Positions 1,692-11,079 of a stretch of DNA of 13,133 nucleotides are shown here, piece after piece; position 1 is the stretch's first letter; every line of letters starts with the position of its first letter. Origin of the DNA: a virus (lineage: Duplodnaviria; Heunggongvirae; Uroviricota; Caudoviricetes); the IMG/VR virus record IMGVR_UViG_3300022821_000011, positions 1 through 13,133 of that record; one strand, 5' to 3'. Below the pieces are notes generated by a model. It was not told where the DNA came from and searched no databases. It was given only the letters and a program-made list of their open reading frames with translations. Made by a program: the position numbers and the translations under genes.

Positions 1692-1877
1692 TTATGTATT
1701 GACATTATCACATAGAGAGGATAATGTCAACCTTATTTGATCATTGACTTGATTTCTAACTTGTCTAATTATTTTATCCCAAGATTGGTTATCAAGTTTA
1801 TCGTTAGTATATTCCCAAACATGTTCCCAAACATGTTCTTCTACTCGATTTTGTATTTGAAGCTTTACATAAAACAT
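1692..1877 (-). CDS. Dispersed member of the QV/W-repeat micro-protein family; C-terminus reads through a promoter palindrome
   Basis: HVWEHVWE...QVRNQVNDQIR resembles 6767-6916 (QVRFQVNDQIR); residues LTLSSLCDNVN are encoded by the palindrome; weak SD. Confidence 0.65.
   Translation of the reverse strand: MFYVKLQIQNRVEEHVWEHVWEYTNDKLDNQSWDKIIRQVRNQVNDQIRLTLSSLCDNVNT
1699..1730 (-). promoter_or_regulatory. Palindromic promoter element, copy 3
   Basis: Identical to copy 2. Confidence 0.85.
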
Positions 1878-4813: not shown

Positions 4814-5104
4814 TTAAGTCTTATCAGTTATATAGTCCAGGATCGCAAGTATTGCAATGCTCGCGGCTGCAATTACTAGTGCGAATATTGCGAAAAAGAC
4901 CACTATCGCAATAATAGCAAGGTATATCCCTACTATTAGCCCAACGACTGCCGCCGCCGCTGCTAGGCCATATCCGAATATAGCTGATATGGATATAGCG
5001 ACTGGTGGTATAGCTATCGATACGAGCGCTATGATTGCGCACGCGGCCCCGACTGTTGCTCCGATGGCCATGATTTTTTCGTTTTCAACTTTCAACTTTT
5101 TCAA
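4814..5104 (-). CDS. Small Ala/Ile/Gly-rich membrane protein (2-3 TM segments)
   Basis: About 75 consecutive almost entirely hydrophobic residues; TTG start overlaps upstream TGA (TTGA), or ATG at 5071. Confidence 0.7.
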   Translation of the reverse strand: MKKLKVENEKIMAIGATVGAACAIIALVSIAIPPVAISISAIFGYGLAAAAAVVGLIVGIYLAIIAIVVFFAIFALVIAAASIAILAILDYITDKT

Positions 5105-5202
5105 CTTTCAACTTTCCGAGATCTTGCGCGCCTCGAGAACTGGTTCGAGCCGAGAGATCTCTCGTGTGCCACGGCGTCTGATTTAATTGTTTCGTAGACC
5201 AT
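5101..5202 (-). CDS. Putative 33-aa basic peptide (MVYETIKS...RRARSRKVES)
   Basis: First ATG after promoter 5245-5273; stop overlaps TTG of the membrane ORF; no clear SD. Confidence 0.35.
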   Translation of the reverse strand: MVYETIKSDAVAHERSLGSNQFSRRARSRKVES

Positions 5203-5273: not shown

Positions 5274-5316
5274 TAGGATATTTTAATAAGGTATGTCTTT
5301 TTCAACTTTTAGATTT

Positions 5317-5484
5317 TCAACTTTTAGATATAGTTTGAATTAAAATTTGAGATGTTATACTACTGAAAATATTATAAGTTGGTGTAAATAAATTATTATA
5401 ATGATAATAATTAGATTGGTCTATAACTTTATGAAAGACTCTATTTCTTATTGCAATATGTATTTCGTGTCTTTTGTTTTTCAT
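5317..5484 (-). CDS. 55-aa micro-protein, last gene of the coupled chain
   Basis: MKNKRHEIH...QTISKS*; ATG overlaps TGA of 5481-5750 (ATGA). Confidence 0.6.
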   Translation of the reverse strand: MKNKRHEIHIAIRNRVFHKVIDQSNYYHYNNLFTPTYNIFSSITSQILIQTISKS

Positions 5485-5750
5485 GTTAAATAATTCTTTA
5501 TTCGATTTTCGACTTGAAACCTGGCTTGAGTCCTGACTTGATCCCTGACTTGAATCCAGACTTGACCCCTGACTCGAGTCCTGACTTGAATATCGACTTG
5601 ATTCCAGACTTGATCCCTGACTTGAGTCCAGACTCGATTCCTGACTTGATTCCCGACTTGAATATCGACTTGATTCTCGATTTGATTCCAGACTTGATTC
5701 CAGACTTGACCCCTGACTTGAGTCCAGACTTGATCTCTTAAACTTTTCAT
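5481..5750 (-). CDS. QVxx-repeat micro-protein R1 (89 aa)
   Basis: [16 protein letters not shown]...; ATGA-coupled at both ends. Confidence 0.8.
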
Positions 5751-5920
5751 ATCAAAGCATTCCTGACTTGATTCCTGGCTTGAGTCCAGACTTGATCCCT
5801 GACTTGAATCCAGACTTGAGTCACGACTTGAGTCCAGACTTGATTCTCGATTTGATTCCAGACTTGAATATCGACTTGAATATCGACTTGATATTTGATC
5901 TGATTCCTTAAAGCTTTCAT
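5747..5920 (-). CDS. QVxx-repeat micro-protein R2 (57 aa)
   Basis: Hand-translated MKALRNQIKYQVDIQVDIQVWNQ...QVRNALI*; ATGA-coupled. Confidence 0.8.
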   Translation of the reverse strand: MKALRNQIKYQVDIQVDIQVWNQIENQVWTQVVTQVWIQVRDQVWTQARNQVRNALI

Positions 5921-6126
5921 TTTAATATATCTCTAATTTGATCTTTGATTTGATTCAAGACTTGATTCCAGACTTGATTCCAGACTTGAGTCCAGACTTG
6001 ATTCTCGATTTGATTCCAGACTTGATCCCTGACTTGAATATCGACTTGAGTCCAGACTTGATCCCTGACTTGAATCCAGACTTGACCCCTGACTTGAGTC
6101 CAGACTTGATCTTTTAAACTTTTCAT
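5917..6126 (-). CDS. QVxx-repeat micro-protein R3 (69 aa)
   Basis: MKSLKDQVWTQ...QIRDILK*; ATGA-coupled. Confidence 0.8.
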   Translation of the reverse strand: MKSLKDQVWTQVRGQVWIQVRDQVWTQVDIQVRDQVWNQIENQVWTQVWNQVWNQVLNQIKDQIRDILK

Positions 6127-6284
6127 TTTAAAGAATTCCTGACTTGATTCCCGACTTGAGTCACGACTTGATTCATGACTTGATTCTCGATTTGATTCCA
6201 GACTTGATGCCTGACTTGATTCATGACTTGAATCTCGACTTGATTCCAGACTTGAATATCGACTTGATCTCTTAAACTTTTCAT
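6123..6284 (-). CDS. QVxx-repeat micro-protein R4 (53 aa)
   Basis: [23 protein letters not shown]...QVRNSLK*; ATGA-coupled. Confidence 0.8.
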   Translation of the reverse strand: MKSLRDQVDIQVWNQVEIQVMNQVRHQVWNQIENQVMNQVVTQVGNQVRNSLK

Positions 6285-6454
6285 ATCAAAGCATTCCTGA
6301 ATTGAGTCCCGACTTGATTCTCGACTTGATTACAGACTTGATTCTCGATTTGATTCCAGACTTGATGCCTGACTTGATTCATGACTTGAATCTCGACTTG
6401 ATTCTCGATTTGATTCCAGACTTGATTCCAGACTTGAACTCTTAAACTTTTCAT
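6281..6454 (-). CDS. QVxx-repeat micro-protein R5 (57 aa)
   Basis: [19 protein letters not shown]...QFRNALI*; ATGA-coupled. Confidence 0.8.
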   Translation of the reverse strand: MKSLRVQVWNQVWNQIENQVEIQVMNQVRHQVWNQIENQVCNQVENQVGTQFRNALI

Positions 6455-6600
6455 ATCAAAGCATTCCTGACTTGATTCCTGACTTGAATCGTGATTTGAT
6501 TTCCGACTTGATTCCAGACTTGATTCTCGATTTGATTCCAGACTTGAGTCCAGACTTGACCCCTGACTTGAGCATCGATTTGAATCCTTATAGCTTTCAT
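6451..6600 (-). CDS. QVxx-repeat micro-protein R6 (49 aa)
   Basis: MKAIRIQIDAQVRGQVWTQ...QVRNALI*; ATGA-coupled. Confidence 0.8.
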   Translation of the reverse strand: MKAIRIQIDAQVRGQVWTQVWNQIENQVWNQVGNQITIQVRNQVRNALI

Positions 6601-6770
6601 TTTAATATATCTCTAATTTGAACATTAACTTGAAACCCGACTTGATTCCAAACTTGATTTTCGACTTGACTCCAAACTTGACTCCTAACTTGATTCCAGA
6701 CTTGAGTCCCGACTTGATTCCCGACTTGAGTCATGACTTGATTCATGACTTGATTTTTTATATTTTTCAT
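6597..6770 (-). CDS. QVxx-repeat micro-protein R7 (57 aa)
   Basis: MKNIKNQVMNQVMTQVGNQ...QIRDILK*; ATGA-coupled. Confidence 0.8.
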   Translation of the reverse strand: MKNIKNQVMNQVMTQVGNQVGTQVWNQVRSQVWSQVENQVWNQVGFQVNVQIRDILK

Positions 6771-6916
6771 TTCAAATTATTTCTTATTTGATCATTAACT
6801 TGAAACCTAACTTGAATCTCAACTTTAATCCATACATGAACCTCAACTTTATTCCATATTTGATATCCAGCCAAGTCCCATAATTGATAATCAACTTTAT
6901 CGCTTAAACTTTTCAT
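6767..6916 (-). CDS. Diverged repeat micro-protein R8 (49 aa)
   Basis: MKSLSDKVDYQLWDLAGYQIWNKVEVHVWIKVEIQVRFQVNDQIRNNLK*; TAATG-coupled to upstream gene. Confidence 0.8.
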   Translation of the reverse strand: MKSLSDKVDYQLWDLAGYQIWNKVEVHVWIKVEIQVRFQVNDQIRNNLK

Positions 6917-7287
6917 TATTTTTTCTTAGTGAAATCCACTGCAATCACTGTAGCTCCCTCTGAAGAGGTTTCGTTTTTTTGTTGTGGTTTTACCCTCCTA
7001 ACATTTTTACGATGGCTCTTCATCTTCTCTATTTCCTCTTCTGGTACTCCAGATAATGATGCCATGGCTGAGAAATCTTGATCATCTATCAAATCCTGAA
7101 TTTTTTCTCTTATTGTGTCACAATTATTAAGTTTTATAATATGATCTTTGATAAAAAAAACAAGATTGCCTCGTTCTATTTCAAATTCTTCTTGTGTTAA
7201 ATCCGTAGTAACTATTAAAAATCTTATTATAATATTTTCAAATACCAGTGGTAAACTGTCTTTAAATTTCTCAAAATCTTCATTCAT
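6916..7287 (-). CDS. Hypothetical protein (123 aa)
   Basis: GGAG SD; coupled at both ends. Confidence 0.85.
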   Translation of the reverse strand: MNEDFEKFKDSLPLVFENIIIRFLIVTTDLTQEEFEIERGNLVFFIKDHIIKLNNCDTIREKIQDLIDDQDFSAMASLSGVPEEEIEKMKSHRKNVRRVKPQQKNETSSEGATVIAVDFTKKK

Positions 7288-7445
7288 TTATAATCTCCAA
7301 TTGAATTATTTAAATTAATACATATAGGTCTTAAATTAATATTATTTGTATGAAAAAGCCCATATAACGAATAATTCAAATAACATATATTCACACGATT
7401 TGCGGTTGTTATAGATTTCATACTTTCGTCATAATGATATTTCAT
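7284..7445 (-). CDS. 53-aa micro-protein (MKYHYDES...)
   Basis: Hand-translated; ATGA overlaps at both ends. Confidence 0.6.
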   Translation of the reverse strand: MKYHYDESMKSITTANRVNICYLNYSLYGLFHTNNINLRPICINLNNSIGDYK

Positions 7446-7615
7446 ATTAATTTATCTCCCATAGAAACTCTTAACATTTGGCGGCGCATGTTTTCAAAAA
7501 AATCATTATCTGGTTTAATAGATATAATTATAAAATTTTTATCAAACCCACGAATGTTTTCATCCAACGGATGTTTTACATTAAGTATCATTTTAGTAAA
7601 ACGATATTTTTTCAC
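7442..7615 (-). CDS. 57-aa micro-protein (GTG start, KKYRFTK...)
   Basis: AGGAG SD 6 nt upstream; ends in ATGA overlap. Confidence 0.6.
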   Translation of the reverse strand: MKKYRFTKMILNVKHPLDENIRGFDKNFIIISIKPDNDFFENMRRQMLRVSMGDKLI

Positions 7616-7616
7616 A

Positions 7617-7778
7617 TCACTCTCCTAATGAATGTAATTTACTGTTTAATGAAATATTTAATATATTGGTATGATACAAAGCAAGAATATAGCTATGATA
7701 ATTATCAGTTATCCATGGTCTATTATAATAATAAAAGCTCGAAGTAGTTCTGTTAATATTTGCGTAATGTGGTTTCAT
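7617..7778 (-). CDS. 53-aa Tyr-rich micro-protein, paralogue of 7775-7948
   Basis: SSFYYYNRPWITDNY motif; ATGA-coupled. Confidence 0.65.
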   Translation of the reverse strand: MKPHYANINRTTSSFYYYNRPWITDNYHSYILALYHTNILNISLNSKLHSLGE

Positions 7779-7948
7779 AATAATCTCATTATTGTTAATT
7801 TATGAATAGTCATACTTATTATATCTAATATTGGCTCCTCAATAATCAACTGTGTAAGATAGATATAATAATCATCAGTCATCCATGGCGCATTATAATA
7901 ATAATAACTACTTTCTTTTTCTGTTAAGTCATGTTTATAAGATTTCAT
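7775..7948 (-). CDS. 57-aa Tyr-rich micro-protein
   Basis: SSYYYYNAPWMTDDY motif. Confidence 0.65.
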   Translation of the reverse strand: MKSYKHDLTEKESSYYYYNAPWMTDDYYIYLTQLIIEEPILDIISMTIHKLTIMRLL

Positions 7949-7960
7949 GATACATTTTCT

Positions 7961-8118
7961 TTATTTTTGTTTTATTTGATTCATAATTTGAGCTGCAACT
8001 CTATCCCAAACTTGTATTGTGACTTTATTCCAAATTAGAGCTCCGGCCTGATCCCAGTTTTTCATACTAATTTTATTCCAAAGGTGAGCTGTGGATTTGT
8101 TCCAAATTTTTTTTTCAT
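7961..8118 (-). pseudogene. Octad W-repeat micro-protein, out of frame at an A9 tract
   Basis: ATG-A9-TTTGG; with A10 it reads MKKK-IWNKSTAH-LWNKISMK-NWDQAGAL-IWNKVTIQ-VWDRVAAQ-IMNQIKQK*. Confidence 0.6.
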
Positions 8119-8158
8119 AATTTCATGTATCAATTCTTAAAAGGTTAACAGATACTAT

Positions 8159-8192
8159 TCGACACCCTATCACATTCATGATAGGGTGTCAA
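8159..8192 (-). promoter_or_regulatory. Palindromic promoter/hairpin heading the micro-gene chain
   Basis: GACACCCTATCA-CATTCA-TGATAGGGTGTC (12-bp arms); minus TTGACA-N17-TAGGGT, plus TCGACA-N17-TAGGGT. Confidence 0.6.
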
Positions 8193-8271
8193 TATTAAAG
8201 ATAAGAAAACCATTTAATATATCAGAGGAAAGGATTGCTAATTAAATCAGTTTCCTTATCCCAATATAGTA

Positions 8272-8619
8272 TTAGTCTTCTACGCGCTTCCAACCTTCAG
8301 GAGTATATTCACGCTGACGACGGACCTGATAAGTACCGGCTTCAAAGAGAATAGGCTCATGAGTATCATTACCACGAAGATGCTCAAGCATAGATGGTTC
8401 GTTAACAACCAACAGGCAATTCATAATATCGTCTGGAAGGTTGTACATTTCAACCTGACCGTTCTTGGCTTCCATAACATGATTATGGCCTGTTTCAGAA
8501 TGAGTCACAATCAAGTAACCATTTTCTGTATCAACCTTGGTTGCTCCTTCAGGAACGCCATCTTCAACTCGGCGAATATAAATATCGCCCTGTGCAGCAA
8601 AATTCTTAAAAGTTTTCAT
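8272..8619 (-). CDS. His-rich beta-type protein (QGD...HSETGHNH...EH...H...RQREY), probable metal-binding partner of DUF6745-like proteins
   Basis: Motifs seen directly; co-occurrence with DUF6745-like genes is from memory. Confidence 0.8.
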   Translation of the reverse strand: MKTFKNFAAQGDIYIRRVEDGVPEGATKVDTENGYLIVTHSETGHNHVMEAKNGQVEMYNLPDDIMNCLLVVNEPSMLEHLRGNDTHEPILFEAGTYQVRRQREYTPEGWKRVED

Positions 8620-8640
8620 TTTATTTTCCTTTCGTTAATA

Positions 8641-9606
8641 TTAAGTTCTAATTTCTGGTATTACAAATTCATTTACATCCATTCCCCAGGTCCATGACTG
8701 TGCTTGAATAGCAGTAGCCATTTCTGGTGGTACTGGAAGAGCAAAAAAGCGCCCTGTACCACATTTCACCCTAAGGAATTTTTCAGGAGTTGGCTCATCA
8801 CCTTCTCCGTTTGGAAGCATGACTTCAAGAAGTGTGCCAATTTCTGGATCGCCATCTTCATCAATGATCTTAGCCTTCAATTCATTAAGAATCGAATCCC
8901 AACCGATCATTTCACAAGCAGCTCTTCGCTGTTCGATATTGGACCATTTCACAGCTTCAGCTGCGGATGGCAGAGAGTCTTCAATCCATTCAGAAGGAAT
9001 AGACACGCCATGATAAAAATATAGTGACCAGCCGTCTCTATAACTTACAGCAGCAGAAGTTTCTGAATGAAGGCGAGCTTCTTCATCAAGAAAAATAGAA
9101 GTTGGACGCTCAGTAATTATAGCAATGCCTTCAAATGGCCACCACCAACCGGCAGATTTAGCAATTTCCATGACACCACGAAGCTTTTCTACTTCTTCTA
9201 CAAGACCTTCAAAAACTGAATAAAATGAAAGCCATCCAGCTTCAAATTGGCCATAAAGAGCATCAAAAACATCATAAAGATCGCTCTTTTTTACTCCAAG
9301 TTTTTTGGAGCAAATGTTAGCATCAAAATTATTATCCATAAGAATTTTAATTTTACGCTGACAGTCTTCAATAGTATTAGAGTCTCGACAAACGGCCGCA
9401 ACCATACTACCCTGGTATGGAGAATCTACCCACACCTTAACTTCTGGTGGTGAAAGATCGGCAGCTTTATATGCCAAATCAACACCCTTTTCAGCTCTTT
9501 CTCGATCAGCAGGCTCGGTACTCAAACCGATTTTAATCCACTCATCTCGAATTTCTGGAAACCTATCGATAACTTCCTGTGGAAGTTTTGTAATTTTATC
9601 GCTCAT
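8641..9606 (-). CDS. DUF6745-like protein (321 aa)
   Basis: EWIKIGLSTEPADR...VWVDSP; YGQFEAGWLSFY; GWWWPFE...ERP; RLH...YRDGW..YFYHGV; C-terminal CGTGRFFALPVPP...AQSWTWG match my recollection of the family. Confidence 0.75.
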   Translation of the reverse strand: MSDKITKLPQEVIDRFPEIRDEWIKIGLSTEPADRERAEKGVDLAYKAADLSPPEVKVWVDSPYQGSMVAAVCRDSNTIEDCQRKIKILMDNNFDANICSKKLGVKKSDLYDVFDALYGQFEAGWLSFYSVFEGLVEEVEKLRGVMEIAKSAGWWWPFEGIAIITERPTSIFLDEEARLHSETSAAVSYRDGWSLYFYHGVSIPSEWIEDSLPSAAEAVKWSNIEQRRAACEMIGWDSILNELKAKIIDEDGDPEIGTLLEVMLPNGEGDEPTPEKFLRVKCGTGRFFALPVPPEMATAIQAQSWTWGMDVNEFVIPEIRT

Positions 9607-9652: not shown

Positions 9653-9691
9653 ACTATAATCTATTCTAGTTTAAATGTCAACAACTATTTT
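9653..9691 (-). promoter_or_regulatory. Sigma70-type promoter with AAAATAGTTG upstream element
   Basis: TTGACA-N17-TATAGT; 16 bp AAAATAGTTGTTGACA identical to 10159-10174. Confidence 0.75.
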
Positions 9692-10215: not shown

Positions 10216-11079
10216 TTACTTCTTACCCTTGTTGTTCCTTATACAGGTAATATTTGCCATCCGCTGCCACATATCAGGGTGTGATTTACGAAGGATACCG
10301 ATCTTAATTGCCATACGAAGAGACAATTCACGAAGCTTCTTAATATTGTCTTCGATATAATCGACAACTTCTTTTTGTTCCAAGAAATCAAGACCCTGAT
10401 TGGCCAAAAGACCCTGTGCAACTACCTGTTTAATTCTCACCATATAATCCCGGCGAGTCTTCATATCCAAATCTACATAATGAGACCGAGAAATAAGAGC
10501 CTGAAGATGAGGAGCAATCTTATTGTTTGAATCAATATACTTATCAAAATCAGTATTAGTGATAAAGATAATAGTGCCTTCAAAGATAAAAGTCTTAGGA
10601 ATATTTTGAGCACTATTCTCATCAAACAACTTAGTTTCAGCAAGATAAGAAACTCGTCGAGTTTCAGTCGTATCGCATACAGCCTTAAGCATATTCAATG
10701 CTGTATCATTAAAGAAAATCGAGTCAGCATCATCAAAAACGATAACATTTCCTGGTTTACGATGTTGGAACAACAGTTTATAAAGACCCGTTGCTCGAAC
10801 ATAACCCTTAATGATGGTGTATCGATCACCAGACGGGTCCCAGTCTTCGAGTTCTTTTTCTACAGTGTAAGACTTACCAAGACCGGCAGGTCCTGAGACA
10901 ATAAGAGCCTTGGTCTTACCCGAAATAGCTGTTCTCGCAAGATACTCAAGAATTTCAAATCGTTCAGACAGCTTTTTGAAAATATCAGCGTCTGACTCAT
11001 TTGTGTCTGGCAAAAACCCACCCACATTCAATTCTGCTACTTCGTTTTTCTTTTTGCGTTCATAAACTCCGCGTGGCAT
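10216..11079 (-). CDS. AAA+-type P-loop ATPase (287 aa)
   Basis: Walker A GPAGLGKS, Walker B VIVFDDAD, sensor-1-like FITN, Arg-finger-like ALISRS. Confidence 0.85.
   Translation of the reverse strand: MPRGVYERKKKNEVAELNVGGFLPDTNESDADIFKKLSERFEILEYLARTAISGKTKALIVSGPAGLGKSYTVEKELEDWDPSGDRYTIIKGYVRATGLYKLLFQHRKPGNVIVFDDADSIFFNDTALNMLKAVCDTTETRRVSYLAETKLFDENSAQNIPKTFIFEGTIIFITNTDFDKYIDSNNKIAPHLQALISRSHYVDLDMKTRRDYMVRIKQVVAQGLLANQGLDFLEQKEVVDYIEDNIKKLRELSLRMAIKIGILRKSHPDMWQRMANITCIRNNKGKK

Follow-up and report, generated by a model that had tools for sequence, protein, structure and literature searches.

A split DUF6745 module in a phage genome: a repeat-less core, a His-rich partner and free-standing tetrapeptide-repeat genes that may supply exchangeable helices

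The virus record IMGVR_UViG_3300022821_000011 carries, near one end, a gene for a DUF6745 protein that lacks the internal tetrapeptide repeat of many of its relatives, together with a chain of small genes on the same strand that consist of such a repeat. The question raised by this locus is whether the repeat has left the protein and still acts on it in trans. The DNA analysed here (the window, 13,133 nucleotides) is the first 13 kb of that linear record, which is 115.7 kb long and about 61% complete. The answer proposed is that the split DUF6745 core displays exchangeable variable helices, probably in conflict between phage and host or between phages, a reading for and against which we see the chances as even. 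A broader version, in which a widespread two-protein core would be loaded in trans with swappable repeat helices against defences or rival phages, through repeated fission of an internal repeat, is put forward more tentatively. The two larger genes of the module are the following.

8641-9606, minus strand: DUF6745 core protein (PF20530), 321 amino acids, no internal tetrapeptide repeat; its N-terminal helical domain is the predicted docking site
8272-8619, minus strand: His-rich, all-beta partner protein, 115 amino acids, with the motifs QGD, HSETGHNH and RQREY (phrog_27831, E 2.7e-9)

A preliminary description of this DNA, made without database searches, had proposed a DUF6745-type protein with a non-repetitive interval between VWVDSP and YGQFEAGW, followed by the His-rich gene, and each of these points was borne out. 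Residues 113-314 of the protein matched positions 5-200 of the 206 in the Pfam DUF6745 profile (E 1.5e-34; 119.5 bits, above the gathering cut-off of 27). The interval comprises 54 residues, modelled as four short helices, and the period-4 tract that long-form DUF6745 proteins carry between an SP motif and a G-x-x-x-x-x-W motif is absent. The gene is single copy in the 115.7-kb contig. Its product was modelled by AlphaFold2 with a predicted local distance difference test score (pLDDT) of 92.6, and the predicted fold matched other members of the family (Microcystis phage LMM01 DUF6745 protein, E 3.5e-16; Atlas TM 0.70-0.77). A comparison with the PDB gave no E value below 0.001 (best Z 5.1), by which neither a new nor a different fold is shown. 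No solved sequence relative was found, no family for this module was present in NCBIfam or PADLOC, and matches to JukA and REase were rejected as low-complexity noise. One search for DUF6745 gave 802 hits, the family being common in phages and prophages, and 8641-9606 is itself an unremarkable new addition to this uncharacterised Pfam family.

The slot in which the repeat is missing could be located among relatives. Of 119 top homologues, 56 carried a four-residue tract at exactly this slot in the N-terminal domain, as the preliminary description had suggested for many DUF6745 proteins, and 63 did not; the repeat-less state is not unusual. Tracts of the types Q-V, S-V, Q-L, N-L, A-T and A-A were observed. 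The Q-V tract inside DUF6745 and the Q-V repeat of free genes have an identical DNA consensus, including the codon GTC (97 of 126 units), which accounts for only 6% of valine codons in this phage, and this shared consensus points to common descent of the internal and free repeats. Units were more diverse in free peptides than in internal tracts (7.9 versus 5.0 distinct units per 10), and the free peptides of other phages begin with a conserved motif, M-K/N-S-V-K-x-Q-V. In cyanobacterial and Oxalobacter DUF6745 proteins, leucine-rich repeats (LRRs) occupy the N-terminal part, as one would predict if the slot were variable and served recognition. LRR domains were seen fused to the C-terminal part of DUF6745 at five loci (L320, L322, L324, L327 and L331) and in an Atlas cluster of 62 cyanobacterial proteins, and Oxalobacter genomes hold several LRR-DUF6745 copies each.

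The second component accompanies the first in most lineages. The His-rich gene lies 21 nucleotides downstream of the DUF6745 gene; the partner was found in 94 of 110 DUF6745 lineages and, in 78 of the 110, on the same strand within 200 nucleotides, in agreement with the earlier statement that many DUF6745-type genes adjoin such a gene. In an Atlas cluster of 50 members the two proteins are fused. The model of the partner is all-beta (pLDDT 89.4), and conserved columns at H47, H80, H87, E42 and E104 make it likely, from sequence, that the protein binds metal. A fold search, which bears on the double-stranded beta-helix of cupins, gave nothing usable (best Z 3.7, no cupin among the matches listed), by which neither a new nor a different fold is shown for the partner, and no solved sequence relative was found. 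Two further proteins (P0123, P0126) join the His-rich domain to a PF13392 domain, which we take to be an HNH endonuclease family; a third, P0124, joins the C-terminus of DUF6745 to half a partner, may be a deletion in a single contig and was given little weight.

The third component is the chain of repeat peptides, whose members are listed below (all bit scores are against a profile of the stand-alone peptides).

7961-8065, minus strand: W-octad degenerate repeat peptide, 34 amino acids, W at positions 4, 12 and 20 (26.9 bits; 0 of 50 shuffles as high)
6767-6916, minus strand: R1, 49 amino acids, partly degenerate Q-V-x-x peptide (40.5 bits)
6597-6770, minus strand: R2, Q-V-x-x peptide, 57 amino acids (frame tracking and peptide profile)
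6451-6600, minus strand: R3, Q-V-x-x peptide, 49 amino acids (alleles of 65 and 69 amino acids in two other samples)
6281-6454, minus strand: R4, Q-V-x-x peptide, 57 amino acids (frame tracking and peptide profile)
6123-6284, minus strand: R5, Q-V-x-x peptide, 53 amino acids (frame tracking and peptide profile)
5917-6126, minus strand: R6, Q-V-x-x peptide, 69 amino acids, the one modelled with DUF6745 (interface score 0.73, best control 0.00)
5747-5920, minus strand: R7, Q-V-x-x peptide, 57 amino acids (frame tracking and peptide profile)
5481-5750, minus strand: R8, Q-V-x-x peptide, 89 amino acids (115.7 bits)
5317-5484, minus strand: 55-amino-acid open reading frame (ORF) coupled to R8, perhaps a member in advanced decay (weak, 6.4 bits, yet above 50 shuffles)
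1692-1877, minus strand: dispersed degenerate member, 61 amino acids (40.2 bits)

The DUF6745 gene, the His-rich gene and the mini-gene chain are all on the minus strand. The chain described earlier as running from a W-octad gene to a Q-V-x-x array is present: after the His-rich gene come the W-octad ORF, four unrelated ORFs of 53-57 amino acids, an ORF of 123 amino acids, the eight QV ORFs (5481-6916) and the degenerate ORF at 5317-5484. The W-octad ORF was taken as a degenerate family member because its score exceeds all 50 shuffles, whereas the four ORFs of 53-57 amino acids (7284-7948) did not score as members against the same profile. Beyond the window, more QV genes lie at 13240-13440, 18661-18774 and 18771-18956 of the record. 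The remaining minus-strand frames over the array and the I-P-D-L repeat ORFs on its plus strand were regarded as shadows. Elsewhere, a free-standing protein of 220 amino acids with about 50 Q-V units is encoded at L207 4283-4945, in a 92% complete phage record without a detected DUF6745 gene, and at three loci (L055, L158, L259) two tandem repeat-less DUF6745 genes have two QV mini-genes in between.

The eight mini-genes look real and under selection to stay open, as judged from their sequences: stop codons are avoided, and all frames remain open in a second allele of the array, found with an identical DUF6745. Tandem Repeats Finder reported about 103 copies of a 12-bp unit over the array (score 608). 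Every QV ORF has 4n+1 residues and an ATGA overlap with the next, and each is in frame with CAA-GTC despite a frame shift at every junction. Within the unit, bases 1-6, 9 and 12 hardly change and variation is concentrated at bases 7, 8, 10 and 11, so that most change alters the third and fourth residues. Stop codons numbered 0 in 90 units, with 9.0 expected from column frequencies (P ~1e-4), although openness is itself a criterion by which ORFs are picked. The array was identical letter for letter in five other assemblies and is therefore not an assembly artefact. The second allele, common to two samples, contains 84 novel 24-mers with all frames kept, and its new units cannot derive from other copies in this genome. 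Both of these samples show 0 differences in DUF6745 and the 1.36-kb spacer, and in one of them the array has contracted to three genes. The numbers of units and genes in the array thus differ between samples with an identical DUF6745, although some of the length differences could be assembly collapse. Contigs breaking inside the array yielded no usable variants.

The base composition of the unit also bears on the idea that the array acts as DNA, as a GANTC cluster titrating a host methylase or methylation reader, or as an iteron-like element. There are 63 GANTC sites in the 1436 nucleotides of the array, against 3.3 per kb elsewhere; the codons for W/R-N-Q generate this site, however, and few arrays are rich in GANTC (6 of 39 free and 2 of 28 internal ones). 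What is conserved is the protein pattern and not the site. GANTC as a family-wide cause is largely refuted by these counts, and a role as DNA is considered extremely improbable.

That the free peptides belong with the core is indicated by the distribution of the two forms across phages. Among loci found through DUF6745 itself and clustered at 90%, 34 of 51 DUF6745 genes without the repeat had free repeat genes beside them, as against 0 of 26 with it (p 2e-9), and clustering at 70% left 16 of 29 against 0 of 22. Pooling all loci gave 59 of 74 against 0 of 68, a count that is inflated because some loci were found through the repeat, so that the DUF6745-selected count is the fairer one. When the search was made by repeat DNA alone, the repeat occurred almost only inside DUF6745 (55 stretches) or in small ORFs (61 stretches). 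None of the 55 internal stretches had free genes and no locus had both, while in all 21 free-gene stretches with a whole DUF6745 gene that gene was repeat-less, as were 11 of 11 whole DUF6745 genes located in other parts of free-gene records. A peptide search of 34 records whose DUF6745 bears the repeat (at least 90% complete in 12 cases) gave matches to long frames only. The co-occurrence of repeat-less DUF6745 genes with stand-alone QV ORFs, raised in the preliminary description, thus proved tight.

Repeated conversion between the forms was suggested by phylogeny. When the insert was left out of the tree, at least 13 changes of repeat state were required by branches with good support, and phylogenetically independent pairs gave 5.4 in the same direction and 0 in the opposite one. 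One locus with an internal Q-L tract (L082) forms a clade with two repeat-less loci that have free Q-L peptides (L053, L061), with a Shimodaira-Hasegawa-like approximate likelihood ratio (SH-aLRT) support of 99; the Q-L type shared by all three is what fission predicts.

A physical association was supported by structural modelling, in which the core with its alignment was predicted together with R6 and with three controls, a single peptide and a single pair being modelled. The predicted complex reached an interaction prediction score from aligned errors (ipSAE) of 0.73, against 0.00 for the best control; 58 of 80 solved complexes reached the mark applied to this score, as did 2 of 110 mismatched pairs. 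Contact agreement between runs was at least 96%, and partner pLDDT at least 79. There was no solved sequence relative for the predictor to memorise. In the model, the start of R6 (M-K-S-L) contacts core residues 156-159 and 115-117, and R6 residues V36, W37 and I40 contact core I24, G27, A123, G124 and S127; G27 is invariant in the core, and positions 123 and 127 are nearly always small. Predicted contacts involve nearly all Q and V positions (28 of 30), 9 of 14 third positions and 5 of 14 fourth positions, such that the constant Q-V face would be buried and the variable fourth residue mostly exposed. The model supports binding of R6 to the DUF6745 core.

Docking alone would also be expected if the repeat helix were an inhibitor, autoinhibitory in cis and antitoxin- or immunity-like in trans, of a toxic or exclusion effector formed by DUF6745 and its partner; the array would then neutralise its own copy and the copies of competing phages, like orphan immunity arrays. 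This explanation accounts for docking on the core, for the fact that the two forms exclude each other, and for copies that are accumulated in tandem or dispersed, and the variable third position is often in contact (9 of 14). It is at odds with a buried face that is constant and a most exposed position that is variable, with the absence of any nearby peptide in L009 and six other repeat-less lineages, and with a core that is invariant within the population. No toxin-like fold or family was clearly matched by the core in the PDB, PADLOC or NCBIfam. We regard inhibition as rather unlikely.

Several observations weigh against the proposal that a split core displays exchangeable helices. L009, the closest long relative (82% identical, with the same gene order), has no QV genes in 20 kb, and the link between free repeat genes and repeat-less DUF6745, tight as it is, is therefore not obligatory. 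DUF6745 was present in 8 of the 10 records with free genes that were at least 40% complete and was not seen in the other 2. The tree-corrected test fell short of significance (median p 0.0625). A T4-like look was noted for 0 of 68 repeat-bearing loci and 47 of 100 free-gene loci, so that lifestyle and repeat state are partly tied and confounded. The repeat-less slot here has 54 helical residues, against a stub of about 24 residues in most split forms, and the docking prediction, made for a single pair, may reflect a fused form that the predictor had learned.

Some of the same observations would be expected if the array were a gene accordion, neutral or selfish, in which a 12-bp unit prone to recombination expands and degenerates within the small-ORF regions of lytic phages; the exclusion of forms would then reflect lifestyle alone. 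Fast contraction and expansion, decayed members, the absence from L009 and the T4-like confound all agree with it. Avoidance of stops, and third codon positions that are fixed while first and second positions vary, do not; nor do the agreement in Q-L type between sister lineages, the controlled docking prediction, or the large non-T4 phages that have the internal repeat and no free genes. An accordion of this kind seems very unlikely.

Peptides that split off from DUF6745 could also have become independent, as decoys or sponges for host proteins or as self-assembling helices, in which case the linkage would be historical. Copies lie 4 to 10 kb from DUF6745, the chain has its own promoter-like site, no DUF6745 was seen in two free-peptide records, and four-residue repeats of a similar kind function in a different carrier, Tweety gp54. 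Yet the linkage persists over many lineages and G+C contents, including L291 (56% G+C, 11 peptides), and the conserved start motif M-K/N-S-V-K-x-Q-V is the best-resolved part of the predicted interface. Independence of the peptides is judged distinctly unlikely.

Under the proposal of exchangeable helices, the locus would be a three-part early accessory module in split form, consisting of core, partner and peptides. Each peptide would be a long helix wrapped around the N-terminal domain of DUF6745, with a constant inner and a variable outer face; DUF6745 and the His-rich protein would form the constant core, and each peptide would act as an exchangeable specificity subunit. In temperate-type phages the helix would be built into the core and vary mainly in length, whereas in this phage it would be supplied in trans by many genes. 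Freeing the repeat would allow one core to carry many surfaces against a changing third-party target, which, by analogy to Tweety gp54, would most likely be a host defence or a host factor met early in infection. The earlier suggestion that the repeat module is externalised as trans-acting peptides that dock on or tune the core is thus partly supported. Linkage, the slot and one predicted docking favour it; on the other side, trans action and tuning have the standing of predictions, some relatives lack the link and the tree-corrected test is not significant.

The setting of the module was examined in the window and the rest of the record. The long ORFs of the record, read by eye, resemble replication and recombination genes of the T4 type, and near-identical DNA is present in salt-lake metagenomes, with no RNA data set among the matches listed. 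Two promoter-like elements accompany the module.

9653-9681, minus strand: sigma70-type promoter-like site upstream of DUF6745 (11 of 12 consensus match only)
8160-8192, minus strand: promoter-like element TTGACA-17-TAGGGT within a 12-bp inverted repeat, upstream of the mini-gene chain (sequence only)

Small minus-strand ORFs with sigma70-like promoter matches fit an early accessory region, and the neighbours of DUF6745 loci are early, non-structural genes. Six near-identical, self-complementary promoter-like elements (TTGACA start) are present on the minus strand at 609, 1392, 1730, 2268, 2531 and 3481; 22-24 of their 32 bases are palindromic, each precedes small ORFs, and the inverted repeat at 8160-8192 is related to them. 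An AAA-type ATPase gene (10216-11079; phrog_1250, E 1e-82) lies one kb upstream of DUF6745 and is found near DUF6745 also in L009 and four other split loci, though not in most. No third conserved neighbour gene was present among DUF6745 loci, the commonest flanking family occurring in 10 loci.

Two of the small ORFs outside the QV family (7617-7778 and 7775-7948; 53-57 amino acids) are Tyr-rich paralogues with the common motif S-x-Y-Y-Y-N-x-P-W-x-T-D, and a homologue is syntenic in L009 (12338-12526). At the same locus L009 has more than 25 coupled ORFs of 50-65 amino acids that start with M-K (11461-18205, both strands), none of them repetitive. The profile of stand-alone peptides did not recognise these ORFs as members; they could be relatives that have decayed completely or belong to another, unrelated family of mini-genes. 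A G+C-richer stretch (4814-5104, 5082-5116 and 5299-5329) contains a hydrophobic ORF of 96 amino acids together with TTTTCAAC repeats. In L009, comparable AAAAGTTG repeats are found close to the contig end, and the stretch in the window is possibly an origin or genome-end region.

Compared with known systems, the locus is closest to DUF6745 (PF20530; phrog_31813) proteins with an internal tract, for example gp38 of Mycobacterium phage prophiGD102-1, which share the domain, the His-rich neighbour and the Q-V-x-x unit in both DNA and protein. Here, in contrast, the tract is outside the core, in at least eight separate genes, with higher unit diversity. Polymorphic toxin systems include arrays of orphan immunity genes. 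Like these, the QV peptides are tandem small paralogues beside a constant core, which they are predicted to bind; unlike these, they are pure tandem repeats derived from the core, their variable face is predicted to be exposed, and no toxin domain was found. Diversity-generating retroelements combine adenine-specific change in a variable repeat with a reverse transcriptase. The QV array resembles them in that variation falls mostly on first and second codon positions (here AAT to NNT, fourth residue), whereas its CAA adenines are spared and the number of units also varies. No reverse transcriptase was seen by eye among the long ORFs listed, in a genome that is about 61% complete and without a reverse-transcriptase profile search. 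If the peptides are swappable specificity subunits, they would represent a new phage route to a varied binding surface, one that needs neither reverse transcription nor inversion.

The split layout matches no described system that was found, and the system looks new. No literature naming DUF6745 was found in a search that had most subscription journals outside its reach, and beyond that only Tweety gp54 surfaced. Mycobacteriophage Tweety gp54 (Che8 gp57, PMC gp51) is a tunable counter-defence against Phrann gp29/gp30. Its repeat tunes escape from prophage defences (PMC9262239, PMC8549241) by a mechanism that has been called obscure (PMC8549241), and in its 12-bp unit the first six bases and bases 9 and 12 are fixed while 7, 8, 10 and 11 vary (PMC2884959). 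The QV array shares this base-level pattern, W and G at the third residue, and change in copy number. In gp54, by contrast, the repeat is internal and of the A-A-x-x type, and neither a His-rich partner nor free mini-genes are described. Homology of gp54 to DUF6745 was rejected (no Pfam hit, hhalign probability 0.07); some DUF6745 tracts, as in L341, are A-A-W-S-like and resemble the gp54 repeat. With peptides that are separable one by one, the split system would offer a simple handle on how changes in a tetrapeptide repeat tune counter-defence, as in Tweety gp54.

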